A stretch of 64,000 nt of DNA, from the NCBI GenBank assembly GCA_965232515.1, contig CBDDPY010000002.1, positions 7,072,001 to 7,136,000 on the forward strand, written 5' to 3'. A program made the translations under genes and the position numbers. Below the pieces are notes generated by a model. It did no database searches, had not been told where the DNA came from, and worked only from the letters and a program-made list of their open reading frames with translations. Positions 30,865 through 52,127 of the stretch are shown here, in pieces. Every line of letters starts with the position of its first letter. The first letter of the stretch is position 1. Source of the DNA: Alphaproteobacteria bacterium. Lineage in GTDB: Bacteria; Pseudomonadota; Alphaproteobacteria; GCA-2731375.

Positions 30865-31811
30865 TTTGGCAGATCATTGATTCGGTCCGCAACCCATTGG
30901 TGCAGACGATATACACCATCAATTCGCTTGTCACGATTATTGCTCGAGGCTTTGGGCTCTACGCCGGCATTCGAGGGCCCGAAAAGCGTCGGTGTGGATC
31001 CTCGGAAATGCGGCGCAATCCCAGGGGCAAAGCAAGCGGACAGAGAACATCATCGACCGATGAGAAGAAGAGATCTTGATGTCGCGGCCACGCGCCTGCT
31101 GTTGGTCACCGGTGGTATCGAGATCGACAGAGGGCAAGAATCATCAAATCCACTGCGTCGAGCGCAAGCAGAAAAACTGCGCATGCGTTGCGCTCGGGGA
31201 CCGTTATTCATCGAAGCTCGAGGAAGGACCCGTTTCGCATCGCCAGCTGTCAGCGCGACTTGCCGCAGCACAGCAGCGGGTTGCCGTTGATCGGATCTCT
31301 GCTGCGGCACGCAAAACTTGAGACGGGCCAACGAATTCATGAGCTTTGCCGCAGATGCCACACATTTCGTGAAAACACAGCAATGAATCAAAGGCATATG
31401 TGCGAAATCCAGTATTAGGATCTTGGCGTTGGTGCTGTGACAGCGCGGCATCCGATCCTAGGGGATTGAACTGCAAGGCGGATCATATGCCGCGGCTGTG
31501 GCGGCTCTCGTGCGGCAGCCTGCGAACCTGCGGCATAGCGATGCCTAGCTACCGGGTCGTCGATAGCGTTCCGTGATCTCGCTTTCCGGCCCGCGTTAAA
31601 GAAGCGATGACATTTGCCGGCCATTCATCTGTGCAGATGACGATGGATCGTTACGGCCACCTTTTTTCCTTCTGCGGATCATCACCTCGGCATGGACAAG
31701 GTCGAAGCCCGACTACTCGGTTGAGCGCAACACCACCGCGATACGGCATGGCTTTCGATCGCTAAGTGGCTGAAATGCCAGCGTGAAATCCCAAGAAAGG
31801 TGGGCTTTAGT

Positions 31812-31851
<40 letters not shown>

Positions 31852-32032
31852 ATCATCAGCAACCACAACACGCGACACCACTGGCCCGGCGCCATGTCCG
31901 GCCAGCACATGGCCGTGCCTGCAGGGTGCCCGATGCGGCGGCGGTGCGACATCGGGCGAGACGGTCGGCGCGGCGAATGCCAGAATGATGAGCTGAAAAC
32001 GTTCGACATCACAGCCCGCATGGGTATCCGCC

Positions 32033-33015: not shown

Positions 33016-33031
33016 TGGCACGGAACGTGCT
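33016..33031 (+). promoter_or_regulatory. sigma54 (-24/-12) promoter upstream of the enhancer-binding protein gene
   Basis: TGGCACGGAACGTGCT, GG-N10-GC. Confidence 0.7.
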
Positions 33032-33140: not shown

Positions 33141-34532
<1,392 letters not shown>

Positions 34533-34557: not shown

Positions 34558-34574
34558 TGTCCGCTGGCGTTACA
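34558..34574 (-). promoter_or_regulatory. 17-bp enhancer-like motif copy 1 (reverse orientation)
   Basis: TGTCCGCTGGCGTTACA is the reverse complement of TGTAACGCCAGCGGACA. Confidence 0.8.
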
Positions 34575-34716: not shown

Positions 34717-34732
34717 TGGCATGCTTTTTGCT
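34717..34732 (+). promoter_or_regulatory. sigma54 promoter
   Basis: TGGCATGCTTTTTGCT. Confidence 0.85.
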
Positions 34733-34918: not shown

Positions 34919-35752
34919 ATGGCTGAGTTTGGATTAGGTCGGCTGGCAATCACCGGCTTGTTGGTTGCGGGGCTCGCCATCGCGTCGTCGGCCGTTCGTG
35001 CCGACGATGACGATGATGAAGACGTCGATATCGATTTCGATTCCGACGTGTCGATCGACATCAATAAGTCGATATCCGTAACGGTCGACGTCAACATTAC
35101 CGGCGACATCGTGGTGAACGGCAGCGTCAACGTCTCCGAAACCGCCATGTCGCTGATCAACAACACCCAGGTCATCAATGACGGCCTGGTTACGCTCGCG
35201 GACTCGGACGCCGATTTCTCGAATACCGTCGTGCTCGGCACCGATGTGCTGGAATCGTCGAACGGCAACATCGGCGTCAACCTGTCGTCCGGCGCCAGCA
35301 TCCTGCAGGAAAACAGCGTGTCGCTGTCGACGTTGAGCGGCGGGCCCAGCACCTCGGCCGACGCCGAGTCGTTCAGCCTGCAGCAGAGCCTGAACAACAC
35401 GTTCAGCCCCGACAGCACCACGAACGACGTCGTCAATTCGGCGCAGCTGCTGGGCAACGTGCTGGCGGATGCCACCGGCAATATCGGCGTGAACATCGCC
35501 GTCGGCGCATTCCACGCGCAGGACAACTCGCTTGCTCTGGGTTCGGCCACCGGCAATACCGTGCTGGCGCAATCGTTGGCGAATACCGTGCAGGAAGTGT
35601 CGTTCGGCCGGACATTCCATGTCGACACCGTCAACAGCGTCACGCTCGGCGACAGCGTCCTGGCCGGCGCCAACGGCAATATCGGCCTCAACATCACGGC
35701 CGGCACCAATAACCTGCAGCGCAACACGCTGGTGATTTCTTCCGGCCAATAG
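34919..35752 (+). CDS. FapC-like amyloid subunit, divergent paralog with a poly-Asp N-terminus
   Basis: Signal peptide ending AVRA; three repeats GNIGVNLSSG..LQEN, GNIGVNIAVG..QDN, GNIGLNITAGTNNLQRN. Confidence 0.8.
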   Translation: MAEFGLGRLAITGLLVAGLAIASSAVRADDDDDEDVDIDFDSDVSIDINKSISVTVDVNITGDIVVNGSVNVSETAMSLINNTQVINDGLVTLADSDADFSNTVVLGTDVLESSNGNIGVNLSSGASILQENSVSLSTLSGGPSTSADAESFSLQQSLNNTFSPDSTTNDVVNSAQLLGNVLADATGNIGVNIAVGAFHAQDNSLALGSATGNTVLAQSLANTVQEVSFGRTFHVDTVNSVTLGDSVLAGANGNIGLNITAGTNNLQRNTLVISSGQ

Positions 35753-35790: not shown

Positions 35791-35807
35791 TGTTCGCTGG
35801 CGTTACA
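35791..35807 (-). promoter_or_regulatory. 17-bp enhancer-like motif copy 2 (reverse orientation)
   Basis: TGTTCGCTGGCGTTACA. Confidence 0.75.
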
Positions 35808-35946: not shown

Positions 35947-35962
35947 TGGCACGCTACTTGCT
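35947..35962 (+). promoter_or_regulatory. sigma54 promoter
   Basis: TGGCACGCTACTTGCT. Confidence 0.85.
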
Positions 35963-35999: not shown

Positions 36000-36383
36000 A
36001 TGACAACACTTCTCGTGAACTGGTTGCGCTTGCACCGCCAGCGACCGCAGCGGTGCGTTCTGCGGCGTGTCGGGCTCGGCCTCATCTGCGTCGCGGCGGT
36101 GCTGTCCATCCCGATTTCCGCCGCGGCCGATCCGCTGAAAATGGTTCTGCCGGCGGCCGCGCTTCAGGATGGCCAGATCGTTACGGATGCGGACGTCCTG
36201 TCCGGCATTCGCGGCCGCGGCGCCGAGGGGCCGGACGTTATGTCGGCGGGACCGGATCTCGCCGTCGTGCTGTGGGATGAACTCGAGCGTCCGACGCGCA
36301 ACGGTCAGTCCGGCTCCATCTATTCGCATTCCGCCGGCAATCAGAACATGCAGGCGTCCACGCTGTCGGCGACGCGGTACTGA
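36000..36383 (+). CDS. Small secreted accessory protein of the Fap-like locus
   Basis: Start moved from 35958 (inside the promoter) to ATG 36000; hydrophobic signal LGLICVAAVLSIPISAAA; IVTDADVLSGIRGRG motif similar to that of the FapE-like protein. Confidence 0.6.
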   Translation: MTTLLVNWLRLHRQRPQRCVLRRVGLGLICVAAVLSIPISAAADPLKMVLPAAALQDGQIVTDADVLSGIRGRGAEGPDVMSAGPDLAVVLWDELERPTRNGQSGSIYSHSAGNQNMQASTLSATRY

Positions 36384-36386: not shown

Positions 36387-36908
36387 GTGCGGGTTCGCGC
36401 CAAACCGACGGCCGCCTGGACGACGTTCTGGCTCGGATTGTCGGCATGTGTGATCTCGGTCGCGGCGCCGGCGCCGATGGTGCTGGCGGCGGACGGAAAG
36501 ATCGTCGTTATTCGCCAGGTGCCGCCCCGGCCCGCCTACCGGCAGGGGCCGCCGGGTCCCGCGGTCGAGGTCAGCACGACCCCACGCATCGATCTCTCGG
36601 CGACAGGGCGGATCAGTCCGACCGTGCTCGACGCCGTGCCGAACGCCGAGATCATCAGCGATGGTGAAGCCGCGGCCATTGCCGGCGGCGCCGCGCCGCT
36701 GCAGCCGCAGCCGTCGTCAGGCGGCCTGACCGGTCTCGCGGCCGGGGAGGGCGCGCGGCGGACCGGCGGGACCGATGTCCGCGGGCAGTTCGGCGCGCTG
36801 CAGTCGCTTGGGACAATTCCGACACAGGTCGGCGCCGCCGGCCGGTCGGTCAGCCGCGCGACATCCGGCCTGAGCAACACCGTTCGCCGGGCCCTCGGGC
36901 AGCAATAG
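36387..36908 (+). CDS. FapA-like secreted accessory protein
   Basis: Signal peptide; DGKIVVIRQVPPRPAYR and EIISDGEAAAIAGG segments resemble FapA; Gly/Ser-rich C-terminus; lies directly before the FapB-like gene. Confidence 0.6.
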   Translation: MRVRAKPTAAWTTFWLGLSACVISVAAPAPMVLAADGKIVVIRQVPPRPAYRQGPPGPAVEVSTTPRIDLSATGRISPTVLDAVPNAEIISDGEAAAIAGGAAPLQPQPSSGGLTGLAAGEGARRTGGTDVRGQFGALQSLGTIPTQVGAAGRSVSRATSGLSNTVRRALGQQ

Positions 36909-36926: not shown

Positions 36927-37526
36927 ATGATGACAAGCCGACAGACGTGCCTTGCGGGCCTGTTGCTTTCGGCGGTTCTGGCCGCCTTACCGGCGCGGGC
37001 ACAGGAAGTCGTCACGCAATCGACGATCAACGACGATGCGCTGCGGGACATCGCCGGCGTCGCTCTGATCAACCAAAGCGCCGGCGACGGCAATCAGCAG
37101 CTCAACAGCGCGGCGCTGGCGGTAAACGCCACGGGCCTGGCGGTCGCGTTTACGGCGGGCGCGCAGCATACCGATCCGGCGCCGACCGACGTGGAGCTCG
37201 ACGCTTTCGCCGTGATCGATGACGACGCTTTTGCCAACGCGCGGGGTCTGGTCTCGGTCAGCCAGGCCAGCGGCATCGGCAACCAGCAGATCAACTTCGC
37301 CTCGCTCGCCGTCGGTGTCGACGTCAGCGTGCTGGCCGAAGCCGAGCTCAGCCAGAGCCGCACCGGCGATCCGCCGCCGGCCGATGCGGAACCCGAGGGC
37401 GCGCGGCTGACCCACATTGACGATCGCGCGTTCCTGGATGCCTCGGGCGTTATTCAGGTCAACCAGGTCGCCGGCGTGTCGAACAACACCTTCAACCGCT
37501 TCGCGTTGACGATGTCGGCAAATTAG
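36927..37526 (+). CDS. FapB-like minor amyloid subunit / nucleator
   Basis: Signal peptide; three repeats IxDxA..xxGxxxxNQxAGxGNQQxN (INQSAGDGNQQLN, VSQASGIGNQQIN, VNQVAGVSNNTFN). Confidence 0.8.
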   Translation: MMTSRQTCLAGLLLSAVLAALPARAQEVVTQSTINDDALRDIAGVALINQSAGDGNQQLNSAALAVNATGLAVAFTAGAQHTDPAPTDVELDAFAVIDDDAFANARGLVSVSQASGIGNQQINFASLAVGVDVSVLAEAELSQSRTGDPPPADAEPEGARLTHIDDRAFLDASGVIQVNQVAGVSNNTFNRFALTMSAN

Positions 37527-37541: not shown

Positions 37542-37558
37542 TGTCCGCAGGCGTTACA
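37542..37558 (-). promoter_or_regulatory. 17-bp enhancer-like motif copy 3 (reverse orientation)
   Basis: TGTCCGCAGGCGTTACA. Confidence 0.8.
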
Positions 37559-37705
37559 GTTATCGAACGCCAACCGTCCGCCAACGGATCCATCGCCATC
37601 TGGAAACCGAAAGCCGCCCAAACGCTGGACTGAAGTCCCGATCGTCCAGATTCCCGGGGCATCGACGACAGGCGCGACCCTTCTGTCCGACAAGCGCAAT
37701 TGGTT

Positions 37706-37721
37706 TGGCACAGGAATTGCT
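37706..37721 (+). promoter_or_regulatory. sigma54 promoter
   Basis: TGGCACAGGAATTGCT. Confidence 0.88.
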
Positions 37722-37819
37722 TCAATGCTCTTGAACGGTGCGCCGAGGACCATAACGGCGCCGAAATCGAAAGACCGTGCTCGACACGGCATGACCTGTA
37801 ACGACAGGAGGTCCAGACG

Positions 37820-38659
37820 ATGGCAGTCAGATACGGCCTGGCGGTGGTGGCGGGAATTTTCGTCGCCGCCTGGATTGCGGGTCCGGCCGTCGCGCAAGGC
37901 GTGACCCTGACGAAGACCTACGATGAAGACATCAATGTCGAATACGACAATACGGTCGATGTGGACATCGCCAAGGACATCGATGTCTCGAAGGACATCG
38001 ACTACAACGGCGTCGTGAACATCACCGGCAACATCAATGTGTCGGAATCGGCGGTGTCGGTGATCGACAACAAGCAGATCATCGACGACGGCTTCGTCAG
38101 CGTGACCGGCAGCGACGCGACGCTCAGCAACGTCGCCATCATCGACGGCACGGTGCTCGGCGGCGCCGGCGGTAACATCGCCGTCAACCTGACGGTCGGC
38201 GACAACAACCTGCAGGAAAACGTTGGCATCCTGTCGGCGATCGGCGCCACCACGACGGAAGGCGCGGCCGACGCCGAATCCTTCAATCTGCAGAAGAGCA
38301 TCAACAACGACTTCTCCGCCAGCTCCGACGCCGAGGTCTTCAACAACACCCAGATGCTCGGCTCGGTTCTGGCCGGCGCGGCCGGTAATGTCGCGCTCAA
38401 CGCGGCGACGGGTGCCTATAACGGCCAGAAGAACGCGCTGGCGATCGCCGCGGTGAGCGGGGCGGCGACGCTGTCCGAAGCGACGGCGGCGATCCTGCAG
38501 GAGGTCACCTTCAACTCCACGGTTCACAACAACACCGCCAATCAGGTCACCCTGCAGGACAGCGTCGCCAACGCGGCGACCGGCAATATCGGGCTCAACC
38601 TGGCGGCCGGCACCAATAATCTGCAACAAAACACGCTGGCCATCTCGTCCGTGCAGTAG
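37820..38659 (+). CDS. FapC-like major amyloid subunit, tandem copy A
   Basis: GGAGG RBS; signal peptide ending AVA-Q; three GN[IV]xxNxxxG..Q.N repeats; N/D/A/G/T/V-rich. Confidence 0.85.
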   Translation: MAVRYGLAVVAGIFVAAWIAGPAVAQGVTLTKTYDEDINVEYDNTVDVDIAKDIDVSKDIDYNGVVNITGNINVSESAVSVIDNKQIIDDGFVSVTGSDATLSNVAIIDGTVLGGAGGNIAVNLTVGDNNLQENVGILSAIGATTTEGAADAESFNLQKSINNDFSASSDAEVFNNTQMLGSVLAGAAGNVALNAATGAYNGQKNALAIAAVSGAATLSEATAAILQEVTFNSTVHNNTANQVTLQDSVANAATGNIGLNLAAGTNNLQQNTLAISSVQ

Positions 38660-38687
38660 CGTCCCCCAAACGCTCCAAACGACATCG

Positions 38688-38716
38688 GGCCCGGCAATCG
38701 CGCCGGGCCGTTTTTT
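38688..38716 (+). terminator. Rho-independent terminator after copy A
   Basis: GGCCCGGC-aatcgc-GCCGGGCC followed by GTTTTTT. Confidence 0.85.
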
Positions 38717-38782
38717 GTCCGCGGGCATTGGCGGTCGTCTGGCCGCAAACGGTCATCGCGTAAACGACATCGACTGTTCGAC

Positions 38783-38799
38783 TGTAACGGCAGCGGACA
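38783..38799 (+). promoter_or_regulatory. 17-bp enhancer-like motif copy 4
   Basis: TGTAACGGCAGCGGACA, 66 bp before the promoter. Confidence 0.8.
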
Positions 38800-38865
38800 G
38801 AACGCCGGCCGCGCGATAGCCACGTCTTCCACCAGAACCGTGGGTCAGCCGGGCGTTCGATCGAC

Positions 38866-38881
38866 TGGCATGACGCTTGCT
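38866..38881 (+). promoter_or_regulatory. sigma54 promoter
   Basis: TGGCATGACGCTTGCT. Confidence 0.85.
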
Positions 38882-38990
38882 TTGTAGATCCGTGAGGCAG
38901 GAAGCCATGACGTCGGCGGCGTGCGCGTCGAAGACCTCCGTTCCTGTCGGTCCATCCCAGTCTTATCCGTAACCGTGGGAGGTTCAGAGC

Positions 38991-39830
38991 ATGAAACTAG
39001 GACTGAGTACGCTGGCGGGCATTGCCGTCGCCGCCCTGATCGCGGGTCCGGCTTTCGCGCAATCGACCAGCGTCAGCTTGACCAAGACCTATGACGAGGA
39101 CGTCGACGTCGAATACGACAACACCGTTGATGTCGACATCGCCAAGGACATCGATGTCTCCAAGGACATGGACTACAACGGCGTGGTGAACATTACCGGC
39201 AACATCGACGTCTCCGAAGCCGCGATGTCCGTTGTCGACAACAAGCAGATCGTCGATGACAACATTGTCTCGGTAACGGGCACCGACGCGACGATTAGCA
39301 ATGTCGCCCTGATCGACGGCACCGTGCTCGGCGGCGCCGGCGGCAATATCGGCGTCAACGTCGCGGTCGGCGACAACCTGCTGCAGGAGAACGTGGCGGT
39401 TCTGTCGGCGATCGGCGGCACGGCGGCGGCCGGCTCGGCCGATGCCGAGGCCTTCAGCGTGCAGAAGGGCGTCAACAACAGCGTGTCCGGCAGCTCGGAC
39501 GCCGAAGTCTTCAACAACACGCAACTGCTTGGTGACGTGCTCGCGCTCGCGACCGGCAATGTCGGCCTGAACGCGGCAACCGGCGCCTACAACGGCCAGA
39601 AGAATGCACTGGCCATCGCGGCGGTGACCGGGTCGGCGACCCTGTCGGAAGCCACGGCGGCCGTGTTGCAGGAGAGCACCTTCAACTCGACCTCGCACAA
39701 CGACACCGCCAACTCGGTGTCGCTGGGCGACAACGTCGCCAACGGCGCGACGGGCAATATCGGTCTCAACCTGACCGCAGGCGCCAACAATCTGCAGCAG
39801 AACACGCTGGCGATTTCGTCCGTCAACTAA
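38991..39830 (+). CDS. FapC-like major amyloid subunit, tandem copy B
   Basis: Paralog of copy A; GGAGG RBS; signal peptide ending AFA-Q; three repeats. Confidence 0.85.
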   Translation: MKLGLSTLAGIAVAALIAGPAFAQSTSVSLTKTYDEDVDVEYDNTVDVDIAKDIDVSKDMDYNGVVNITGNIDVSEAAMSVVDNKQIVDDNIVSVTGTDATISNVALIDGTVLGGAGGNIGVNVAVGDNLLQENVAVLSAIGGTAAAGSADAEAFSVQKGVNNSVSGSSDAEVFNNTQLLGDVLALATGNVGLNAATGAYNGQKNALAIAAVTGSATLSEATAAVLQESTFNSTSHNDTANSVSLGDNVANGATGNIGLNLTAGANNLQQNTLAISSVN

Positions 39831-39850
39831 TCGTTCTGCAAGCCTGATCG

Positions 39851-39888
39851 AAGGGCTCCGGCTTCACGGCCGGGGCCCTTTTCTTTTT
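39851..39888 (+). terminator. Rho-independent terminator after copy B
   Basis: AAGGGCTCCGGC-ttcacg-GCCGGGGCCCTT followed by TTCTTTTT. Confidence 0.9.
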
Positions 39889-39963
39889 GTCGACCGGTCG
39901 CCCAAAGGCAATCTTTTCGCACGCCGCATCCGCCAGGCAGCAAGCGAGAAACAAGGCGTCCGC

Positions 39964-39980
39964 TGTAACGCGACCGGACA
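39964..39980 (+). promoter_or_regulatory. 17-bp enhancer-like motif copy 5
   Basis: TGTAACGCGACCGGACA, 66 bp before the promoter. Confidence 0.8.
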
Positions 39981-40046
39981 GAAACGCTTGGGCCAACCGG
40001 CGCGCGCGAAGCGGAATTTTCCATTCAAAACAGAAGACTAGGTTGC

Positions 40047-40062
40047 TGGCATGGGAATTGCT
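40047..40062 (+). promoter_or_regulatory. sigma54 promoter
   Basis: TGGCATGGGAATTGCT. Confidence 0.88.
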
Positions 40063-40153
40063 TTGACGTAGTTGAGGCAGGATCAAACGCGTCGATGACC
40101 GTCACTCCTGTCGGTACCACAAACCGTTCCTGTAACCGTGGGAGGTTCACACC

Positions 40154-41008
40154 ATGAAACTAGGACTGAGTACATTGGCGCTGGCAGGCGTCGCCGTAGC
40201 CGCATTGATCGCGGGTCCGGTATTCGCGCAAACGGTCACGACGAGCGTCAGCCTGTCGAAGACGTATGACGAAGACGTCGACGTCAACTACGACAACACC
40301 GTCGATGTCGACATCGCCAAGGATATCGATGTCTCCAAGGACATGGACTACAACGGCGTGGTGAACATCACCGGCAACATCAACGTGTCGGAAGCCGCGA
40401 TGTCCACCGTCGACAACAAGCAAATCGTCGACGACAACATCGTTGATGTGCTTGGCAGCGATGCGACGCTCAGCAACGTCGCGCTGATCGACGGCACCGT
40501 GCTCGGTGGCGCCGGCGGCAACATTGGCGTCAACGTCGCGGTCGGCGACAACCTGCTGCAGGAAAATGTGGCCGTGTTGTCGGCGATTGGTGGAACGGCA
40601 GCGGCCGGCTCGGCCGACGCCGAGGCCTTCAGCGTCCAGAAGAGCATCAACAACGAGTTTGATGACGGCGTTGAGGACGCGGAAGTCTTCAACAACACGC
40701 AGCTGATCGGCGCGGTGCTGGCGGGCGCGACGGGTAACGTCGGCCTGAACGCGGCGACCGGTGCCTACAACGGTCAGAAGAATGCGTTGGCTATCGCCGC
40801 GGTGACCGGCTCGGCCACCCTGTCCGAGGCCACGGCAGCGATCCTGCAGGAGAGCACCTTCAACGACACCTCACACACCGACACGGCGAACGAGGTCAAG
40901 TTGCAGGACAGCGTCGCGAACCTGGCGACCGGCAACATCGGTATCAACCTGACCGCCGGCACTAACAATCTGCAGCAGAACACGCTGGCGATTTCGTCCG
41001 TTAACTAA
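40154..41008 (+). CDS. FapC-like major amyloid subunit, tandem copy C
   Basis: Paralog of copies A and B; GGAGG RBS; signal peptide; three repeats. Confidence 0.85.
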   Translation: MKLGLSTLALAGVAVAALIAGPVFAQTVTTSVSLSKTYDEDVDVNYDNTVDVDIAKDIDVSKDMDYNGVVNITGNINVSEAAMSTVDNKQIVDDNIVDVLGSDATLSNVALIDGTVLGGAGGNIGVNVAVGDNLLQENVAVLSAIGGTAAAGSADAEAFSVQKSINNEFDDGVEDAEVFNNTQLIGAVLAGATGNVGLNAATGAYNGQKNALAIAAVTGSATLSEATAAILQESTFNDTSHTDTANEVKLQDSVANLATGNIGINLTAGTNNLQQNTLAISSVN

Positions 41009-41027
41009 CCCCTCTGCCCTTACCCCC

Positions 41028-41063
41028 AAGGGTCTCGGCCATTGGGCCGGGACCCTTTTTTTT
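41028..41063 (+). terminator. Rho-independent terminator after copy C
   Basis: AAGGGTCTCGGCC-attg-GGCCGGGACCCTT followed by a T run. Confidence 0.9.
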
Positions 41064-41084
41064 GGTTTTGAACGTGTCGTCCGC

Positions 41085-41101
41085 TGTAACGCGACCGGAC
41101 A
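41085..41101 (+). promoter_or_regulatory. 17-bp enhancer-like motif copy 6
   Basis: TGTAACGCGACCGGACA, 66 bp before the promoter. Confidence 0.8.
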
Positions 41102-41167
41102 GAATGTCCGTCGAAGCGTGCGGCTCCAAATCGCGAAACTGCCATTGTCGGCAGCCACTTAAACCGC

Positions 41168-41183
41168 TGGCACGGGAATTGCT
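41168..41183 (+). promoter_or_regulatory. sigma54 promoter
   Basis: TGGCACGGGAATTGCT. Confidence 0.9.
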
Positions 41184-41291
41184 TCGTTGAGGTTGAGGCA
41201 GGACCCCGAAGTGACGGCGCCTCCTGCGTCGGGCGCTTTGCCCCTGTCCCTCCGTGTCACGTAATTTCGGCAACTACGGGAGGTTCCAATA

Positions 41292-42134
41292 ATGAAGCTC
41301 AAACACGGTGTGATGGCGCTGGCGGGCGCTGCCGTAGCCGCCCTGATCGCGGGTCCGGCCTTCGCGCAATCGACCGCCGTCAGCTTGACCAAGACCTACG
41401 ACGAGGACGTCAACGTCGAGTACGACAACACCGTTGATGTCGACATCGCCAAGGACATCGATGTCTCCAAGGACATGGATTACAACGGCGTGGTCAACAT
41501 CACCGGCAACATCAACGTATCCGAAGCCGCGATGTCGGTCGTCGACAACAAGCAGATCGTCGACGACAACTTCGTTGACGTGACGGGAAGCGACGCGACC
41601 TTGAACAATGTCGCGCTGATCGACGGCACCGTGCTCGGTGGCGCCGGCGGCAACATCGGCGTCAACGTCGCGGTCGGCGACAGCCAGCTGCAGGAGAATG
41701 TGGCTGTTCTGTCGGCGATCGGCGGCACGGCGGCGGCCGGCTCGGCCGACGCGGAAGCCTTCAGCGTCCAGAAGAGCATCAACAACGAGTTCGACGGCGA
41801 AGAAGGCGAGGTGTTCAACAATACCCAGCTGCTGGGTGACGTGCTCGCGGCCGCGACCGGCAATGTCGGCCTGAACGCGGCGACCGGCGCCTACAACGGC
41901 CAGAAGAACGCGTTGGCCATCGCGGCGGTGACCGGCTCGGCAACCCTGTCCGAGGCCACGGCGGCGATCCTGCAGGAGAGCACGTTCAACGACACGCTCC
42001 ACAACGACACGGCCAACGAGGTCAAGCTGCAGGGCAACGTCGCGAATACGGCGACCGGCAACATCGGCCTCAACCTGACGGCCGGCACCAACAATCTGCA
42101 GCAGAACACGTTGGCGATTTCGTCCGTCAACTAG
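41292..42134 (+). CDS. FapC-like major amyloid subunit, tandem copy D
   Basis: Paralog; GGAGG RBS; signal peptide; three repeats. Confidence 0.85.
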   Translation: MKLKHGVMALAGAAVAALIAGPAFAQSTAVSLTKTYDEDVNVEYDNTVDVDIAKDIDVSKDMDYNGVVNITGNINVSEAAMSVVDNKQIVDDNFVDVTGSDATLNNVALIDGTVLGGAGGNIGVNVAVGDSQLQENVAVLSAIGGTAAAGSADAEAFSVQKSINNEFDGEEGEVFNNTQLLGDVLAAATGNVGLNAATGAYNGQKNALAIAAVTGSATLSEATAAILQESTFNDTLHNDTANEVKLQGNVANTATGNIGLNLTAGTNNLQQNTLAISSVN

Positions 42135-42154
42135 CCGAGCTGCATCCATCTTCC

Positions 42155-42188
42155 AGGGTCCCGGCCGCTGTGTCGGGGCCCTTTTTTT
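42155..42188 (+). terminator. Rho-independent terminator after copy D
   Basis: AGGGTCCCGGC-cgctgt-GTCGGGGCCCT followed by a T run. Confidence 0.85.
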
Positions 42189-42198
42189 GTTCGCCCGG

Positions 42199-42215
42199 TG
42201 TAACGCCAGCGGACA
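42199..42215 (+). promoter_or_regulatory. 17-bp enhancer-like motif copy 7
   Basis: TGTAACGCCAGCGGACA, 64 bp before the promoter. Confidence 0.8.
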
Positions 42216-42279
42216 ACCGGATTGCCTTTCGCTTGGCCGCGTCGTCCGCAAAGTCCCACGGATGCGGGGCACTCCCGCT

Positions 42280-42295
42280 TGGCATGGGAGTTGCT
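42280..42295 (+). promoter_or_regulatory. sigma54 promoter
   Basis: TGGCATGGGAGTTGCT. Confidence 0.88.
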
Positions 42296-42402
42296 TTGAT
42301 TTCACTACGTTGGGGCGTCATTGGAAATGATGGCGGGCGTACGTTCGAACCGGATGCCCGTCGGAGCGATTCCGTCTCCAGAGACGGAGGGAGGCCCAGA
42401 TC

Positions 42403-43260
42403 ATGAGACTAGGACAAAGTGGGGTGGCGCTGTTGGGCGCCGCGATGGCGACATTGATCGCGGGATCGGCCTTCGCGCAATCCCAAACCATTAGCTCGTC
42501 CGTGAGCTTGGCGAAGACCTATGACGAAGACGTCGACGTCGATTACGACAACACAGTCGATATCGACATCGCCAAGGACATCGATGTCTCCAAGGACATG
42601 GACTACAACGGCGTGGTGAACATCACCGGCAACATCAACGTGTCGGAAGCCGCGATGTCCACCGTCGACAACAAGCAGATCATCGATGACGGCTTCGTCG
42701 ACGTGTTGGGTACGGAGTCGACGCTCAGCAACATCGCGCTGATCGACGGTACCGTGCTCGGCGGCGCCGGTGGCAATATCGGCGTCAACGTGGCGGTCGG
42801 CGACAACCTGCTGCAAGAGAATGTGGCGGTGCTGTCGGCGATTGGCACGGCAACGGCCGGTTCGGCCGACGCCGAGGTGTTCAGCGTTCAGAAGAGCATC
42901 AATAATGAGTTCGATGACTCGACCGAGGTCGAGGAGGTGTTCAACAACACGCAGCTGCTGGGCGACGTGCTCGCGGCCGCGACCGGCAACATCGGGTTGA
43001 ACGCCGCAACAGGCGCCTTCAACGGCCAGAAGAACGCTCTGGCCATCGCCGCGGTGACCGGCTCGGCGACTCTGTCGGAAGCGACAGCGGCGGTGCTGCA
43101 GGAGAGCACCTTCAACGACACCTTTCACAATGACACCGCCAATGAGGTCAAGCTGCAGGGCAACGTCGCGAACACGGCGACCGGCAATATCGGTCTCAAT
43201 CTGATCGCTGGCACCAATAACCTGCAGCAAAACACACTCGCGATTTCCTCCGTGCAGTGA
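42403..43260 (+). CDS. FapC-like major amyloid subunit, tandem copy E
   Basis: Paralog; GGAGG RBS; signal peptide; three repeats. Confidence 0.85.
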   Translation: MRLGQSGVALLGAAMATLIAGSAFAQSQTISSSVSLAKTYDEDVDVDYDNTVDIDIAKDIDVSKDMDYNGVVNITGNINVSEAAMSTVDNKQIIDDGFVDVLGTESTLSNIALIDGTVLGGAGGNIGVNVAVGDNLLQENVAVLSAIGTATAGSADAEVFSVQKSINNEFDDSTEVEEVFNNTQLLGDVLAAATGNIGLNAATGAFNGQKNALAIAAVTGSATLSEATAAVLQESTFNDTFHNDTANEVKLQGNVANTATGNIGLNLIAGTNNLQQNTLAISSVQ

Positions 43261-43280
43261 CTGCTGGTTGACCCAACCGC

Positions 43281-43318
43281 AAGGGTTCCGGCCGCTTCGG
43301 CCGGAACCCTTTTTCTTT
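43281..43318 (+). terminator. Rho-independent terminator after copy E
   Basis: AAGGGTTCCGGCC-gcttc-GGCCGGAACCCTT followed by TTTCTTT. Confidence 0.9.
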
Positions 43319-43382: not shown

Positions 43383-43399
43383 TGTAACGCCAGCGGACA
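43383..43399 (+). promoter_or_regulatory. 17-bp enhancer-like motif copy 8
   Basis: TGTAACGCCAGCGGACA, 64 bp before the promoter. Confidence 0.8.
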
Positions 43400-43463: not shown

Positions 43464-43479
43464 TGGCATGGATTTTGCG
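43464..43479 (+). promoter_or_regulatory. sigma54 promoter
   Basis: TGGCATGGATTTTGCG. Confidence 0.85.
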
Positions 43480-43574: not shown

Positions 43575-44300
43575 ATGCCGAATTCAACGATAGCCGCGAT
43601 CGCAGCGATCGGCGTCATGTCTTGCCTTTTGTTCACGGCCGGGCCGGTATCCCAGAGCCATGCCGGCGAGATCCGGCTGGGCAGCGTCGTGCCCGGCGCT
43701 GGCGTCGTTCGCAAGAGCTTCAAGAGCATGCGCGAGCGGCGCTATACCGACATGGTGCCGCAAAAAACAGACTTCAGTTGCGGCGCCGCCTCGGTCGCGA
43801 CGATCCTGAAATACGCCTATGGCAGGGAGACGACGGAAGTCGAGGTGCTGGAGGGCATGCTCGAGATCAGCGACAGGGAGCTCGTTCTGAAGAAGGGCTT
43901 TTCGCTGCTGGAGATCAAGCGCTACGTGGAATCGCTCGGCATGCAGGGCGTCGGCTTCCGGATCGCGCCCGAAAACATGGACAAGATCAAGGTTCCGACG
44001 ATCGCCCTGATCGACATCAAGGGCTACAAGCACTTCGTGGTTTTGAAGAAGGTCAGGAACCAGAAAGCCTATGTCGCCGACCCGGCGCTCGGCAATTCGG
44101 TGATGAAGCTCGACAAGTTCGCCGAAGTCTGGAACGGCGTGGTGTTCGCCGTCGTCGCCGACGACTACGACAAGGACAACGTGCTCCTGAAGGCCAAGGA
44201 GCCATTGAGCGCCAAGCGGCTCTACGGCATGCGCGCGCCCGTCACCAACGCCAACCTGCTCGATTTCGGATTTCGCCACGCCGATCTCTTCCGCTTCTAA
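43575..44300 (+). CDS. fapD: Stand-alone periplasmic C39 cysteine peptidase (FapD-like)
   Basis: Signal peptide; QKTDFSCGAA (catalytic Cys), GFSLLEIKRY, GYKHFVV (His), ADPALGN (Asp); located in the amyloid locus. Confidence 0.9.
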   Translation: MPNSTIAAIAAIGVMSCLLFTAGPVSQSHAGEIRLGSVVPGAGVVRKSFKSMRERRYTDMVPQKTDFSCGAASVATILKYAYGRETTEVEVLEGMLEISDRELVLKKGFSLLEIKRYVESLGMQGVGFRIAPENMDKIKVPTIALIDIKGYKHFVVLKKVRNQKAYVADPALGNSVMKLDKFAEVWNGVVFAVVADDYDKDNVLLKAKEPLSAKRLYGMRAPVTNANLLDFGFRHADLFRF

Positions 44301-44508: not shown

Positions 44509-45417
44509 TTGGACGTGTTCCCTCGTGGCTGTTCAGTCGCCATCCATTGCCGGCCCAATCGTCGACCGCGTTGGGTTGGTTGGGTACGAAGCGGATCCGT
44601 GCGTTGCCTGTTTCTCGGCGTCCTGCTGCTGGCGTCGCCGCTACGCGCCGCCATGCCCGACATGAGCTGGGTCGACGAGGCCGAGATCGTCTCCGACGTC
44701 GAACTCGCGGATATGCGCGGCCGTTTCTTGCAGAGCGGCGATGTGACCTATTTCGGCGTGCAGATGGTCACGACCTGGCAGACGTCGGACGGCGTGATCA
44801 TGAACACGGGCGTTGAGTGGGGCGTCGATTTGGGCGGCGGTTCGGCGGATCCGACGGTCAGCTTCTTTCAACTGTCGCCCGATGACGTTTCGTCGAGCAT
44901 CGATCCGTTGCTGGAGCGGCAGTTGCTGCAGGAAGCGATGCTGATCGTGAACGAACCGGTCCCACTGACGTCCACCGCAGGCGCCGGCGGGCTGGAAACC
45001 GCGACCGGCATTGTTCAGAGCGTCCAGGCCGCCGGCGACGGCAACGATATCGGCAACGACATCGGTTTGGCCGTGGTCGACGGCGACGCGGCGCCGTCGC
45101 TGGCATTTCCGCAAACGACCTTCGGCGCGCCGCACGATCTGACCGAAACGACGACGGTCGAGTTCGCGGCCGGCACCAAGGCGACGGCGTTCGTTGAGGA
45201 CAACGCGATCGGCATGGTCGTGTCGATCCCAGGCGCCGGCGTCGTACTGCAAGAGCTCCGCGGCGGGCAGGGCCGCGCCGCGCAGCACGCGAACATCTCC
45301 AGCAATCTAAATTTCGTGCGCAACACGATGCAGATCACGTTCGGTGTCGACGCGGCCAATCAGCCGCTTGGCACCAATGTCAGATCTGCGCTGCAGCTGC
45401 TGCCCAGCCTGAGATGA
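44509..45417 (+). CDS. FapE-like secreted accessory protein (true start may be GTG 44599)
   Basis: VSDVELADMRGRF...YFGVQMVTTWQT and QSVQAAGDGNDIGN motifs; lies between the FapD-like and FapF-like genes. Confidence 0.75.
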   Translation: MDVFPRGCSVAIHCRPNRRPRWVGWVRSGSVRCLFLGVLLLASPLRAAMPDMSWVDEAEIVSDVELADMRGRFLQSGDVTYFGVQMVTTWQTSDGVIMNTGVEWGVDLGGGSADPTVSFFQLSPDDVSSSIDPLLERQLLQEAMLIVNEPVPLTSTAGAGGLETATGIVQSVQAAGDGNDIGNDIGLAVVDGDAAPSLAFPQTTFGAPHDLTETTTVEFAAGTKATAFVEDNAIGMVVSIPGAGVVLQELRGGQGRAAQHANISSNLNFVRNTMQITFGVDAANQPLGTNVRSALQLLPSLR

Positions 45418-45423: not shown

Positions 45424-45439
45424 TGGCACGGAGTTTGCG
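45424..45439 (+). promoter_or_regulatory. sigma54 promoter
   Basis: TGGCACGGAGTTTGCG. Confidence 0.75.
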
Positions 45440-45560
45440 TGCCGTAAGGCAGGACAGGTGGCGGCCGAGGCGCTGAATGGGCGCATGCGCGCAAGCAATC
45501 CCGGCGCCACCGGCAGATGTACGATATCGGGGGGATATCGGGTCGAGAAGGGAGGCTGAT

Positions 45561-46169
45561 ATGGGTCCAGCACGAATGTTTGCGCGGCAGGCGATGGTGC
45601 TGTTCGTCGGGGTCATCGCCGGCTGGTCGACATTGACCCAGGCGGCGGACGACAGCGGTCAGTTCGCCATCAAAGGTGTCGGATTGCTCACCTGTCAGGA
45701 CAGCGTCGCCGCGCGCGAGGCAAAGTCCGGCCTGGATATCCGCTTCCGCAGCTGGATCGATGGCTATCTGACCGCGGTCAATCGCTACGAGCCGACGACC
45801 TACGATGCGACGCCGTGGGGAACGCCCGAGATCATCGCCACCATCGTCGACAATCATTGCCGCGACAATCCGGACGAGCGTTTCGTCATTGCCGTACAGA
45901 AGCTGGTCGCCACATTGCAGGCGGACAAGCTGACGACGAGCTCGCCGTTGCTGACGGTGGCCGTGGACGGCAAGCGGGTGCTGCTCTACGAAGCCCTGCT
46001 GCAGCGCGTTCAGGAGCGGCTGGCCGAGCGGGGGCTTTATCTGGGCAATGCCGACGGTGAATTCGGCCCGATGACGCAGCAGGCCATCGCCCTCTATCAG
46101 ATCAGCGAGGGTCTGGAAGGCACCGGACTGCCCGATCCGCTGACGGTTTGGAAGCTGGTGAAGCCCTAA
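45561..46169 (+). CDS. Secreted protein: two-cysteine HdeA-like domain plus C-terminal peptidoglycan-binding domain
   Basis: GGAGG RBS before ATG 45561; C-terminal VQERLAERGLYLGNADGEFGPMTQQAIALYQ...GL..TG matches the PG_binding_1 pattern. Confidence 0.8.
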   Translation: MGPARMFARQAMVLFVGVIAGWSTLTQAADDSGQFAIKGVGLLTCQDSVAAREAKSGLDIRFRSWIDGYLTAVNRYEPTTYDATPWGTPEIIATIVDNHCRDNPDERFVIAVQKLVATLQADKLTTSSPLLTVAVDGKRVLLYEALLQRVQERLAERGLYLGNADGEFGPMTQQAIALYQISEGLEGTGLPDPLTVWKLVKP

Positions 46170-46356: not shown

Positions 46357-47661
46357 TTGAACAAACGATCATTTGCGTTTGTCTGCACCATTGCTTTCGC
46401 CGTCCCAGCGACCAGTATTGCTCAGGACGCGCAGCGAGAGCAGGCGCTGCAAGAGCAGGTCGAACGTTTAACCCGCGTTATTCAGGTTCAACAACGGGCG
46501 CTGCTTCAGCTTGAGCAGCGGCTGCGGGCGCTCGAGCAACGGCAGCCCGCGCCTGAGACGCCGCCGCCAGCCGCGCCGCCGCAGCCGCAAGCGCAGCCCC
46601 CGGCGCCGGAGCAGCCGCCTGCCGCACCGGCGCAACCGCCGCAACCCGAACTCGCCGATCGGGCCGCCGAGGAGGGTGAGGAGGAGCCCGTTAAACGCGA
46701 GGCCGAACCCTCGCGGGCGCTGGAGACGGTCGCCGGCGAGGCGCAGGGCTTTTTCGGCGAGCGCTATACTTTCGAGCCCAGCATCACCTATTCGCGCTTC
46801 GACCGCTCCGAAATCGGGTTGAGCGGGTTCCTGGCGCTGGACGCGATCTTTCTCGGCACGATCAGCGTCGACGAGGTCGAATCGGATATCGTGACCACGG
46901 ACGCGACCTTCCGCGTCGGCATCACCAACGATCTGCAGGTCGACGTCAACGTACCGTTCGTCTATCGCCAGTCGAACTTCGTCAGCGGCGGTGTCGGCGG
47001 CTCGGCATCGGGCCGGGCCGAGAGGGAGGTCGACGCCAGCAATCTGGGCGATATCGGTTTCGGCGTGAATTATCGGCTGTTCCGCGAAACCGAGGTCTGG
47101 CCCGACATCGTCGTCAATGCCCGCGGGCGGGCGCCGACAGGGCGGGACCCGTTCGGGATCGAGCTTCGCACCGTCGAAGGCACCCAGGGCAATCTGCAGG
47201 TGCCGGAACAACTTCCCACGGGCAATGGTGTCTGGCAGGCGTCGGCCGGCCTGTCGTTTCTGAAGACCATCGACCCGGCCATCCTGTTCGCCAGCATCAA
47301 CTACTTTCACAATTTCCAGAAAGGCTTCGACGATATCGATGCCGCCGACGGCGACCAGCCGGGCGACGTGGATCTCGGCGATTCCATTCAAGCCGGCGTC
47401 GGCATGGCCTTCGCCTTGAACGAGCGGCTCAGCCTGAGCCTGAGCTATACGCACCGCATCGTCGAGGAGAGCCGGACCAAATCGGACCTGGCCGACCGCT
47501 TCACCGAGGTCGTCGGCAGCGATGCCAACGTCGGCATTTTGAACACCGGCATTACCTACGCGATCACCGACAACCTGACCTTCGTCTCGAATGTGGGCGC
47601 CGGCCTGACCGAGGATGCGGCCGACGTCGAGATCCGGGTGTCGTTCCCCTACACCTTCTAG
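46357..47661 (+). CDS. fapF: FapF-like outer membrane beta-barrel amyloid secretion channel
   Basis: Signal peptide, N-terminal coiled coil (QREQALQEQVERL...LEQRLRALEQ), Pro-rich linker, GFLALDAIFLG, APTGRDPFGI, LPTGNGVW, terminal Phe. Confidence 0.88.
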   Translation: MNKRSFAFVCTIAFAVPATSIAQDAQREQALQEQVERLTRVIQVQQRALLQLEQRLRALEQRQPAPETPPPAAPPQPQAQPPAPEQPPAAPAQPPQPELADRAAEEGEEEPVKREAEPSRALETVAGEAQGFFGERYTFEPSITYSRFDRSEIGLSGFLALDAIFLGTISVDEVESDIVTTDATFRVGITNDLQVDVNVPFVYRQSNFVSGGVGGSASGRAEREVDASNLGDIGFGVNYRLFRETEVWPDIVVNARGRAPTGRDPFGIELRTVEGTQGNLQVPEQLPTGNGVWQASAGLSFLKTIDPAILFASINYFHNFQKGFDDIDAADGDQPGDVDLGDSIQAGVGMAFALNERLSLSLSYTHRIVEESRTKSDLADRFTEVVGSDANVGILNTGITYAITDNLTFVSNVGAGLTEDAADVEIRVSFPYTF

Positions 47662-48846: not shown

Positions 48847-49326
48847 GTGAAGGGCGACAAGAAGGTTATTCAGATACTCAACGCGGTTCTCAAGAACGAG
48901 CTCACCGCCGTCAACCAATACTTCCTTCATTCCCGCATGCTCAAGGATTGGGGCATTTCCAAGCTGGCCGACTATGAATACGAGGAGTCGGTCGACGAGA
49001 TGAAGCACGCCGATAAGCTGATCGAGCGGATCCTGTTCCTGGACGGCCTGCCGAACCTGCAGGACCTCGGCAAGCTGATGATCGGCGAGAACGTGAAGGA
49101 GATCCTGGAATGCGATCTCAAGCTTGAGCATCTGGCCATACCGGCGCTGCGTGAAGGCATAGCGCACTGTGAGAAGGTCAGCGACTATGTGTCCCGACAG
49201 TTGCTGGACGAGATCCTCAGCAATGAGGAAGAACATGTCGATTTTCTGGAAACCCAGTTTGCCATGATCGAGCGGATGGGCCTGGAGAACTACATCCAGC
49301 TACAGAGCAAACCGGCCGAGGATTGA
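48847..49326 (+). CDS. bfr: Bacterioferritin
   Basis: [42 protein letters not shown]. Confidence 0.97.
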
Positions 49327-49573
49327 CTGCCGGCCCCGCGTTGGAAATTTGCTCGCGTGTGGTGAGCGCGACTTAACGCGCGAGCGACCGCCTGTCGGCC
49401 CTGAGCGGGCGTTCCTTCTCGACAGCGGTCCGGATCGCGAGCCGGGGCCGCTGATGCAAATGCGCCGCGGTCGGCGCCGCGGGTTTCTGTCCCAGGAGCT
49501 GCTGAATGCGTCGGGCCACCGACAGCACGTCGAGCGGCTTAAGCGCGGGCCAGCAGTACATCGACGGCTGGCC

Positions 49574-49789
49574 TCAGCCGGCCGCTTGCGCGGCGCATAA
49601 CGCCATCGGCGCGTCGGCCTCGCCGTCGCCGTGCACGCCGTCGATCAGATCCTGGGCGACCGCGAGGCATCGGCCGCAGTTGGGGCCGTCGCCGAGCGCA
49701 TGATAGGCCTTTTTAGCGCAGCGAACGCCCGATCGCGCCACTTCCCGGATCTCGGCGTCACGGTAGCCATTACAGATACAGACGTACAT
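49574..49789 (-). CDS. bfd: Bacterioferritin-associated [2Fe-2S] ferredoxin
   Basis: MYVCICN...CGRC; GGAG RBS. Confidence 0.9.
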   Translation of the reverse strand: MYVCICNGYRDAEIREVARSGVRCAKKAYHALGDGPNCGRCLAVAQDLIDGVHGDGEADAPMALCAAQAAG

Positions 49790-49822
49790 TCACATCTCCT
49801 ATCGCACTCTAATGTGGCAAGT

Positions 49823-49841
49823 GTGCGAATGATTGTCAATT
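49823..49841. promoter_or_regulatory. Fur-like iron box upstream of bfd
   Basis: GTGCGAATGATTGTCAATT; nearly the reverse complement of the 58529 box. Confidence 0.6.
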
Positions 49842-52104: not shown

Positions 52105-52127
52105 GGGTGTTGCGATTCGATCCAAGG

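Follow-up and report, generated by a model that had tools for sequence, protein, structure and literature searches.

The closest described system is the fapABCDEF operon of Pseudomonas (P. fluorescens PF07, Pseudomonas sp. UK4), in which one fapC is driven from a promoter before fapA. A -24/-12 promoter requiring RpoN and BrfA has been mapped at Pseudomonas fapA (PMC9207406) and BrfA senses c-di-GMP (PMC13101488). In a survey of 1172 clusters, 94.5% carry two fapB/C genes and 5.5% depart from this (PMC12392863), while another survey calls Fap evolutionarily 'fixed', with conserved synteny, unlike curli (PMC12822426). The locus described here is like that of Pseudomonas in gene set and order, three-repeat FapC, C39 FapD, FapF barrel, adjacent sigma54 activator and -24/-12 promoter (PMC9207406). 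It differs in having seven fapB/C genes, eight site-plus-box promoters, FapC copies that all lack Cys, and an extra orfX and peptidoglycan-binding gene.

One polymer or coat made from several paralogous subunits is also found in multi-flagellin systems, curli with multiple csgA/B and chaplins/rodlins (PMC8998449, PMC3521004, PMC6101532), all of which involve unrelated proteins. In Stenotrophomonas, three tandem flagellins form one operon with one active promoter (PMC8998449). Curli loci hold up to six csgA/B homologs, the extra copies being dissimilar and often in separate operons (PMC3521004), and the amyloid gene families of the chaplins and rodlins are controlled by one sigma factor (PMC6101532). 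A sequence-only reading of this DNA had regarded its array as not known from amyloid systems, which was too wide given the curli and chaplin/rodlin examples. For Fap, no description of arrays or of per-copy fapC promoters was found in the literature searched, and many-copy clusters may be tallied in the fapBC counts of PMC12392863.

The PEP-CTERM/PrsR regulon is alike in its single-gene operons for secreted proteins, with an activator motif followed ~63 nt on by a sigma54 motif (PMC1569441); the site-to-box gap is 64-66 nt for copies B-E of the present array. It differs in its dispersed, diverse proteins with a sorting tail and in its kinase-controlled activator, and it is not amyloid. Membership was rejected, as the activator scores 388 bits against the TIGR02915 cut-off of 503 and the three FapC paralogs scanned have no PEP-CTERM match.

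Organization of the Locus

The window, that is, the whole 64,000-nt stretch of alphaproteobacterial DNA that was analysed, holds a complete fap locus. Homologs of FapA-F were matched by NCBIfam in canonical order (6/6), all with scores below the curated, Pseudomonas-type cut-offs. A single operon with one fapC is the typical layout rather than a strict criterion for a Fap system, and the locus departs from it with six fapC genes under separate predicted promoters. The genes are, in order:

33141..34532, + strand, sigma54 activator, BrfA-type (Pfam: VpsR domain, AAA+ with intact GAFTGA, Fis-type HTH)
34919..35752, + strand, fapC0, sixth, divergent FapC paralog (three Fap repeats; 47-49% identity to A-E)
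36000..36383, + strand, orfX, small conserved fap accessory gene, no family
36387..36908, + strand, fapA-like chaperone (NCBIfam NF058617, E 4e-6, below cut-off)
36927..37526, + strand, fapB, minor subunit / nucleator (NF058557, E 1e-30, below cut-off)
37820..38659, + strand, fapC copy A, 279 aa (RBS 37807-37811)
38991..39830, + strand, fapC copy B, 279 aa (RBS 38978-38982)
40154..41008, + strand, fapC copy C, 284 aa (RBS 40141-40145)
41292..42134, + strand, fapC copy D, 280 aa (RBS 41279-41283)
42403..43260, + strand, fapC copy E, 285 aa (RBS 42390-42394)
43575..44300, + strand, fapD, C39 peptidase (PF03412; NF058616 E 4e-79)
44509..45417, + strand, fapE, true start uncertain (NF058559 E 1e-24)
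45477..46169, + strand, peptidoglycan-binding protein gene, between fapE and fapF
46357..47661, + strand, fapF, outer-membrane amyloid transporter (NF058560 E 2e-126)

We infer ATG 36000 as the start of orfX because the upstream TTG overlaps the promoter. On the 3' side of fapC0 a hairpin is present and a T-run absent. Placement of the locus inside a neighbouring island was tentatively set aside, since att-like fragments put the island upstream, with its end at ~31870.

Judged from their sequence, A-E are FapC functional-amyloid subunits, the major fibre subunit of the Fap locus. The tandem repetition every 1.1-1.2 kb noted earlier is borne out by five intact ORFs of 279-285 aa with start-to-start distances of 1171, 1163, 1138 and 1111 nt. 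Three Fap repeats are found in each of the six paralogs (A-E and C0), and they conform to the published three-repeat motif GN-x-G-x-N...G-x-x-N-x-Q-x-N (PMC12392863), repeat 1 deviating at one Asn in B-E and C0. A profile search against the PDB gave a FapC match at E 7e-21 (9nqd/9u4u, E about 1e-20). The best Foldseek match was 9u4u (E 5e-6), the query being a low-confidence model with mean pLDDT 56. A Pfam scan of the locus proteins gave no FapB/C match, while precomputed PF27129 FapBC assignments do match. A complex prediction of B, C and D run without alignments scored 0.00, which speaks neither for nor against a complex.

Among A-E the mature-region DNA is 80-88% identical, and the B-E proteins are 85-92% identical. 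Copies share stretches of identical DNA as long as 98 nt. The dN/dS values among A-E are 0.11-0.25 and 24 of the 25 strain differences listed within fapC genes are synonymous; the copies are under purifying selection.

Predicted Activator Sites and Promoters

The predicted control elements are as follows.

34558..34574, - strand (inverted), 17-bp site of fapC0, distal
34717..34732, + strand, sigma54 box of fapC0
35791..35807, - strand (inverted), 17-bp site of orfX-fapA-fapB, 1 mismatch, distal
35947..35962, + strand, sigma54 box of orfX-fapA-fapB
37542..37558, - strand (inverted), 17-bp site of A, 164 nt upstream of the box
37706..37721, + strand, sigma54 box of A
38783..38799, + strand, 17-bp site of B (-83)
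38866..38881, + strand, sigma54 box of B
39964..39980, + strand, 17-bp site of C (-83)
40047..40062, + strand, sigma54 box of C, with an AT-rich element ahead of it, typical of other fap promoters
41085..41101, + strand, 17-bp site of D (-83)
41168..41183, + strand, sigma54 box of D
42199..42215, + strand, 17-bp site of E (-81)
42280..42295, + strand, sigma54 box of E
43383..43399, + strand, 17-bp site of fapD (-81)
43464..43479, + strand, sigma54 box of fapD and downstream genes, 1 mismatch

The claim that every copy has its own 17-bp site and GG-N10-GC box was confirmed, both being exact in 5/5 copies. The layout of the sites is not uniform: that of A is inverted and distant, while those of B-E are forward at 81-83 nt. 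With up to 2 mismatches the 17-bp site, TGTAACG-N4-CGGACA, has 8 matches in the window against 1.41 expected, a number reached by none of 100 shuffles, and all 7 exact matches in the genome (7.39 Mb) lie inside the fap locus. The sigma54 box has 14 window matches against 1.34 expected; every one of A-E is preceded by an exact box, and the fap locus holds 7 of the genome's 22 exact boxes. The same unit of site and box also stands before C0, orfX-fapAB and fapD, beyond the stretch covered by the sequence-only reading, which missed it. The array together with these three units looks like a mini-regulon of one activator.

The assignment of the adjacent activator as BrfA-type is based on domain set and fap adjacency; it is the only VpsR-domain match of the genome, and its domain set recurs in 6/6 activators that lie next to fap in other taxa. 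RpoN is present in the genome. The 17-bp site is likely read by this activator. For the related 18-bp box of other fap promoters, a de novo motif sampler recovered only a half-site, and the core with both halves was then tested by pattern. This box is present in 47 of 67 such promoters, where shuffles give 2.3, and clusters near -161 and at -92 to -80; the site in the window has no exact match to the core of the 18-bp family. Together with the eight aligned sites, this related box offers a testable, predicted binding site for BrfA-type activators. The AT-rich element before the box of C is presumably IHF-like. Such an element is absent from the A, B and E promoters, its score being affected by GC content. 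A further sigma54-like box, at 45424, lies ahead of the peptidoglycan-binding gene and has no 17-bp site.

Terminators, Spacers and Predicted Transcripts

The GGAGG RBS lies 8 nt before the ATG in 5/5 copies, and a GC hairpin with T-run follows each copy, as had been stated; these are the five longest stems among those listed, in a scanned region whose terminator total (16, against 13.6 in shuffles) shows no excess.

38688..38716, + strand, terminator of A
39850..39888, + strand, terminator of B
41028..41063, + strand, terminator of C
42155..42188, + strand, terminator of D
43281..43318, + strand, terminator of E

Between fapB and copy A no terminator was found. Divergence of the spacers around retained motifs also held up: the 64-nt site-to-box linkers are 0.45-0.59 identical (15 pairs) against shuffle means of 0.47-0.54, while the 5' UTRs of A-D and E remain somewhat alike (up to 0.62 against 0.46-0.52). 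Transcripts of about 0.95 kb had been expected; box, terminator and gene positions predict slightly longer ones of about 0.99-1.01 kb. For the proposed independent transcription of every copy, the retention of motifs against randomised linkers, unlike at other fap loci, speaks in favour, and the transcription itself is a prediction from these elements.

Other fap Loci and the Probable Origin of the Cassette

The fap loci of Pelagibius sp. (L007) and G137 are alike in having the same 17-bp site, a separate sigma54 promoter placed between fapB and the gene that follows, and orfX; Pelagibius shares in addition the peptidoglycan-binding gene and G137 the activator-C0 pair. Matches to the 17-bp pattern, which was chosen post hoc, lie at fap promoters in 4 of 4 cases in Pelagibius G061 and in 4 of 5 in G137. 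Pelagibius differs in its one fapC, two sites per promoter and a ~95-nt spacer without a separate fapD promoter. Its single-copy fapC has two sites, a sigma54 box and a downstream hairpin of its own, and in G137 the same promoter follows fapB. The best reading of the array is that a ready-made cassette, older than the array itself, was duplicated; since the single-copy fapC of Pelagibius already has this cassette, dosage need not be what it arose for. Such a cassette design may be of interest to engineered amyloid materials.

Outside the window, 127 of 129 fapB-fapC and 16 of 16 fapC-fapC spacers are shorter than 95 nt and lack a sigma54 box. The tandem fapC genes found elsewhere lie 50-92 nt from each other, with promoters absent. 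Lysobacter-type loci (L014, L017, L023, L033, L035, L037, L040) are alike in their two to four tandem fapC genes and differ in their 56-78 nt spacers without sigma54 box, because of which these genes are probably polycistronic. The search for other arrays found none in 60 relatives, with copy B as query, 2 in a class sample of 400 (weak) and 2 in 127 of the Pelagibius order. FapC was found in none of 32 other genomes of the order to which the window belongs.

Isoform Signatures in a Kiloniellales Array

A similar array in Kiloniellales is known from its proteins and locus tags, its promoters and its order on a 75-kb contig being inferred; the consecutive tags MI920_15970/15965/15960 are A-like, B-like and C-like in this order. 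Comparison of B, C and D with P0015, P0008 and P0125, pairs chosen by similarity and with sites recurring across pairs, gave 43 paralog-pattern and 36 genome-pattern counts and 0 crossed. A and E pair weakly with Kiloniellales paralogs, with 2-3 crossed sites in several pairs. Identities across the lineages reach 91%, the genomes appearing to lie in different orders, and the C0 orthologs are 62% identical. In the tree the Kiloniellales copies group apart from A-E (support 90/86), while a window-only clade (p 0.31) and cross-lineage pairs (p 0.37-0.44) both pass the AU test. The trees thus do not settle orthology paralog by paralog, and recent whole-locus transfer could be the source of the shared signatures because FapC was not found in the 32 genomes of the order.

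In B, C and D the residues that set each copy apart recur in the matching Kiloniellales paralog, and other positions are alike within each genome, a pattern indicative of a core that is homogenised and of isoform loops that are retained. That B, C and D keep their signatures in a second lineage is suggestive of a fibre of mixed subunits, not of redundant copies. Isoform-variable positions align with loops that the FapC cryo-EM structure leaves undefined. Only limited cross-seeding has been reported between Pseudomonas strain variants (PMC12392863), and the present locus and the Kiloniellales array would offer a natural set of compatible subunits for co-assembly tests. This locus and the Kiloniellales array suggest that Fap is diversifying via multiplication of whole expression cassettes.

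RNA-Library and Strain Data

Four of the 24 listed RNA-library runs were examined. X4, a diverged strain from another study, has even coverage, at depth 3-8, of promoters and spacers alike, with records up to 176 kb, and DNA is therefore likely in this library; its listed spacer indels (41063, 42183-42187) lie outside the 17-bp sites. X6, also a diverged strain, reaches greater depth on the fapC copies, with almost no coverage of fapB, fapD, fapE and two spacer bins, its depths being summed over paralogs; one X6 contig spans intergenic DNA and the run was not counted as expression. No raw poly(A) reads of X21, from about 12% of the run, were placed on the locus. Marine metagenome runs showed small shares, which were given no weight as to habitat. 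Contigs of X3, another sample from the same study as the best-matching run, join A to the promoter of B, C to D, D to E and E to fapD without a single difference, and X4 bridges D-E.

Proposed Explanation and Alternatives

We consider it probable that in this Fap locus the gene for the major subunit was multiplied together with its own expression signals, as a cassette of activator site, sigma54 promoter, RBS, fapC and terminator, giving joint activation, co-assembling isoforms, and a raised output and isoform mix. The adjacent BrfA-type activator would bind the 17-bp site and, with RpoN, switch on eight promoters together, those of C0, orfX-fapAB, A-E and fapD onward, the signal probably being c-di-GMP by analogy with Pseudomonas fluorescens. 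A-E would each yield single-gene mRNAs of ~1 kb, and the FapC proteins would exit through Sec and FapF. Gene conversion would probably keep the isoform core uniform within the genome, letting isoforms stack in one fibre while they differ at matching positions near each repeat start. With the array, more subunit would be made for each single-copy export gene, and the isoform mix would follow from how the promoters are laid out, in site position and AT-rich element. With the same activator site in front of every copy, the copies are probably regulated together and could differ in strength or threshold only.

Pure gene dosage, in which interchangeable copies are kept for subunit output and the likeness to Kiloniellales stems from recent whole-array transfer, appears unlikely. 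The activator site common to all copies, the close similarity of the B-E proteins, the failure to find the locus in 32 relatives and a cross-lineage identity that is high for apparently different orders agree with it; the genome-pattern counts, however, accumulated while the paralog-pattern counts persisted without crossing, and homogenisation should erode neutral signatures. The low identity of the C0 orthologs speaks against a very recent split, and the GC3 of the copies (0.83-0.90) is in line with neighbouring genes. The gene-dosage or tunable-stoichiometry design put forward earlier is thus narrowed: the cassette predates the array, one activator site is shared, and the cross-lineage paralog residues argue for isoform function beyond dosage. 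Even less credible, at a low probability, are promoters that are mere by-products of duplication, some of them weak or silent, with expression mostly by upstream read-through. The lack of a terminator found between fapB and A, the single site per array promoter where Pelagibius and G137 have two, and the missing AT-rich elements would agree with this, but site and box are exact in 5/5 copies with the linker at shuffle level, long hairpin terminators lie between all copies, and the X4 indels spare the sites. Separate promoters and terminators with differing UTRs and promoter layouts could also serve a different signal per copy and one isoform at a time, as in switching systems; this is very improbable, as the same activator site precedes all copies and the export genes and no recombinase or invertase gene was found among the locus proteins scanned. 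An assembly artefact is already largely refuted and hardly conceivable: tandem repeats are easily misassembled, the array is not covered from end to end by any one contig piece and the pieces shown do not include the B-C junction, yet the copies differ by 12-20% in DNA, sit on a 7.33-Mb contig and have several junctions bridged by X3 contigs and X4.

Beyond the cassette explanation favoured above, a heteropolymeric, composition-programmed amyloid is a tentative possibility. Five or six isoforms, their cores kept compatible through gene conversion, would carry their own loop ridges along the fibre, promoter layout would set their ratio, and rising activator activity would shift the composition and so change fibre charge, adhesion or stiffness. 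The loops are Ser-rich in A and B and acidic in C, D and E.

Gene Content of the Locus

The array and its activator gene are as follows.

37542-43318, + strand: fapC copies A–E, five intact genes of 279–285 aa, spaced ~1.1–1.2 kb
33141-34532, + strand: sigma54 activator with a VpsR-type domain, from a domain scan

On profile and model evidence, A–E are FapC amyloid subunits. FapC NCBIfam models matched all three paralogs scanned, two solved FapC fibrils matched the array proteins by profile at E ~1e-20, and FapC UK4 was the top fold match of an array protein (predicted model, mean pLDDT 56). Each of A–E carries three Fap repeats. The gene order is activator, C0 (a sixth, divergent fapC), orfX, fapA, fapB, A–E, fapD, fapE, a peptidoglycan-binding gene and fapF, which reads as a complete fap locus; its gene set, repeats and fold mark it as a Fap system. 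C0 is more distant from A–E than these are from each other. Besides the locus, no further strong fapC match was found in the genome, only a weak one (E 2e-5), and the closest named homologs belong to Kiloniellales and Pelagibius. Together with these homologs, a GcrA match makes an alphaproteobacterial host probable, although this marker also scored in an archaeal control.

Upstream of fapA, orfX (36000-36383) is kept in the Pelagibius, G137 (a comparison genome), Methylotenera, Halomonas and Acidithiobacillus loci. In similarity searches it matched only unnamed clusters, and it may represent an unnamed seventh Fap component. The peptidoglycan-binding gene (45477-46169) also lies between fapE and fapF in Pelagibius, Sphingomonas and Erythrobacter-type loci. 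Variation among A–E is lowest in the N-terminal segment of FapC at residues ~30–85, which is acidic with hydrophobic residues in alternation; this segment holds the longest identical DNA tracts, has pLDDT <50 in the model and gives weak matches in many other FapC homologs.

The Cassettes and Their Promoters

The sequence-only reading had described five tandem copies at this spacing, each with its own enhancer-like site, sigma54 promoter, ribosome-binding site and terminator, and this description holds. The 17-bp site (TGTAACG-N4-CGGACA) was matched 8 times in the window against 1.41 expected, and all seven exact matches in the genome (7.39 Mb) lie inside the fap locus. Each of A–E is preceded by an exact sigma54 box (GG-N10-GC), has GGAGG 8 nt 5′ of ATG and is followed by a hairpin plus T-run; these five have the longest stems, while the total terminator count is not above chance. 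The claim that spacers diverged while the elements were kept was also borne out: likeness of the 64-nt stretch between site and box is no higher than in shuffled DNA (15 pairs), and the 5′ UTRs retain modest similarity. The copies are under selection, with dN/dS of 0.11–0.25 among A–E. Among the 40 of 531 strain differences listed, 25 lie in fapC genes, 24 of them synonymous. An assembly artefact was ruled out: of the five junctions shown, four are spanned without any difference by contigs of sequencing run X3, and D–E is spanned as well in a diverged strain that comes from a separate study.

Missed in the sequence-only reading, the site-plus-box unit also stands 5′ of C0, orfX-fapAB and fapD, giving eight predicted promoters of this type and a single activator beside them. 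That activator is the genome's sole VpsR-domain match, and rpoN is present. In P. fluorescens PF07 the fapA promoter, mapped as −24/−12, depends on RpoN and on BrfA, the activator next to it (PMC9207406), and BrfA is reported to be a c-di-GMP sensor (PMC13101488). Sigma54-like boxes lacking the 17-bp site occur at 33016-33031 (5′ of the activator gene) and 45424-45439 (5′ of the peptidoglycan-binding gene).

In 67 hand-picked first-gene fap promoters from other loci (68 were picked, one too short and dropped), the palindromic core GT-NN-C-N6-G-NN-AC was present in 47, against 2.3 in shuffles, with clusters around −161 and between −92 and −80 relative to the sigma54 box. This 18-bp box is likely a general binding site of BrfA-type activators. 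The window's site has the left half and the positions in common with it; its right half is shorter and the core is not matched. Shewanella fap promoters carry a VpsR-like variant of the box. The recognition helix is SRPRLYR in the activators of the window and G137, and SRVTLYR or similar in most others. The two loci also share the variant 17-bp site; that helix and site go together is only a lead, from one lineage. Besides the 18-bp box, fap promoters of many taxa (L008–L161) contain an AT-rich element at −33 to −7.

Origin of the Array

Comparison loci were the best 80 of at least 321 genome matches and the best 79 of at least 211 metagenome matches, relatives among which are not independent. 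In these, 127 of 129 fapB–fapC spacers measure −4 to 89 nt and have no sigma54 box; the exceptions are the window and Pelagibius. Upstream of the single fapC of Pelagibius lie two sites, inverted at −163 and forward at −82, and a box, and a hairpin follows the gene. G137 has a two-site promoter of the Pelagibius type after fapB, then a FapC-like signal peptide, beyond which its contig gave no FapC match. Because both carry the gene's own promoter, fapC was a self-contained cassette in this subfamily before the array arose. In copy A the distal inverted site still occupies its ancestral place 3′ of fapB, and B–E and fapD have the proximal site only, a pattern that a duplicated unit starting between the two sites would produce.

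Tandem fapC genes elsewhere, mainly Lysobacter-type, are 50–92 nt apart with no box in 16/16 spacers; in two of these (L028, L059) a mislabelled fapB and a broken gene, respectively, are probably involved. Three Lysobacter-type loci (L017, L023, L033) have three or four tightly spaced fapC genes, a second route to FapC arrays that is apparently polycistronic. In Halomonas sp. NO4 (L069), the fapB-C-D-E block occurs twice in succession, and either block has a sigma54 box to itself.

Paralog Signatures in a Probable Second Array

For each of seven paralogs (six of the main type, one C0-like), the longest contig listed is 75,208 nt. A Kiloniellales MAG holds three of them with consecutive locus tags, 15970, 15965 and 15960 being A-like, B-like and C-like in that order. 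From these proteins and tags, we infer one array. Unique residues common to one Kiloniellales paralog number 5/12 for B, 5/8 for C and 5/6 for D, and D and its counterpart have an identical two-residue deletion. Four-way comparisons of B, C and D gave 43 site counts that follow paralog and 36 that follow genome, with no crossed ones; among 24 pairings this one ranks first (56 vs 46), though it was selected by similarity. In the tree, the Kiloniellales copies form a separate group at 90/86 and AU tests rejected neither arrangement; a mosaic would be expected to behave in this way. Copies share identical DNA tracts as long as 98 nt, in keeping with local gene conversion.

Along copy B, the paralog-pattern sites gather at positions 92–98, 164–171, 180–182 and 233–248, the second and last groups overlapping or adjoining the stretch between a repeat's first two strands in the alignment to FapC UK4. 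The cryo-EM study of FapC gives residues 58–59, 123–124 and 186–197 as unresolved (PMC12392863), and as we read the numbering these would fall in that stretch.

Proposed Mechanism and Novelty

In the most likely scheme, all eight promoters are fired by the activator, which probably responds to c-di-GMP. A–E would then yield single-gene mRNAs of ~1 kb, copy A perhaps also being read through from fapAB, and FapF would export subunits that co-assemble through a common core while displaying different loops. Isoform ratios could be set by promoter layout, which differs in that A has only the distal site and B–E the proximal one. For the AT-rich element the score, which varies with GC content, is highest in C (10.0), lower in D (3.1) and under −5 in A, B and E. 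The main rival to this isoform-based reading is pure dosage following a recent transfer, because a search of 32 other genomes from the order gave no FapC.

The layout reported as typical of 94.5% of 1172 clusters (PMC12392863) and the view of Fap as a fixed system (PMC12822426) differ from the multiplied cassettes of this locus, and an earlier survey confined Fap to Beta-, Gamma- and Deltaproteobacteria (PMC3792158). The array design had been called unfamiliar from amyloid systems. This stands for Fap, where no combination of a subunit array with per-copy sigma54 cassettes was found in the openly accessible articles searched; it is too broad for amyloids at large. Each ingredient is known, because multi-gene amyloid subunits are described for curli and chaplins (PMC3521004, PMC6101532) and single-gene sigma54 cassettes under one activator for the PEP-CTERM regulon (PMC1569441). 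The array is real, and its combination in Fap is new as far as the literature was searched.

Neighbourhood of the Locus

A giant repeat-rich protein of 8219 aa (4479-29138, − strand) looks like a type I-secreted adhesin and adjoins a TolC-type outer membrane efflux gene (29521-30864, − strand); together these look like a second system of biofilm type next to fap. At 31600-31870, a C-terminal remnant like a tyrosine integrase (labelled by eye) stands before a 3′ fragment of tRNA-Met. Additional copies lie on the genome's contig C2 at 7033148 and 7070682, with an intact tRNA-Met at 6884762, which would point to nested islands whose end lies shortly before the fap locus. On the 3′ side, ORFs at 48847-56223 resemble, by eye, bacterioferritin, imelysin-type iron uptake and TonB genes.
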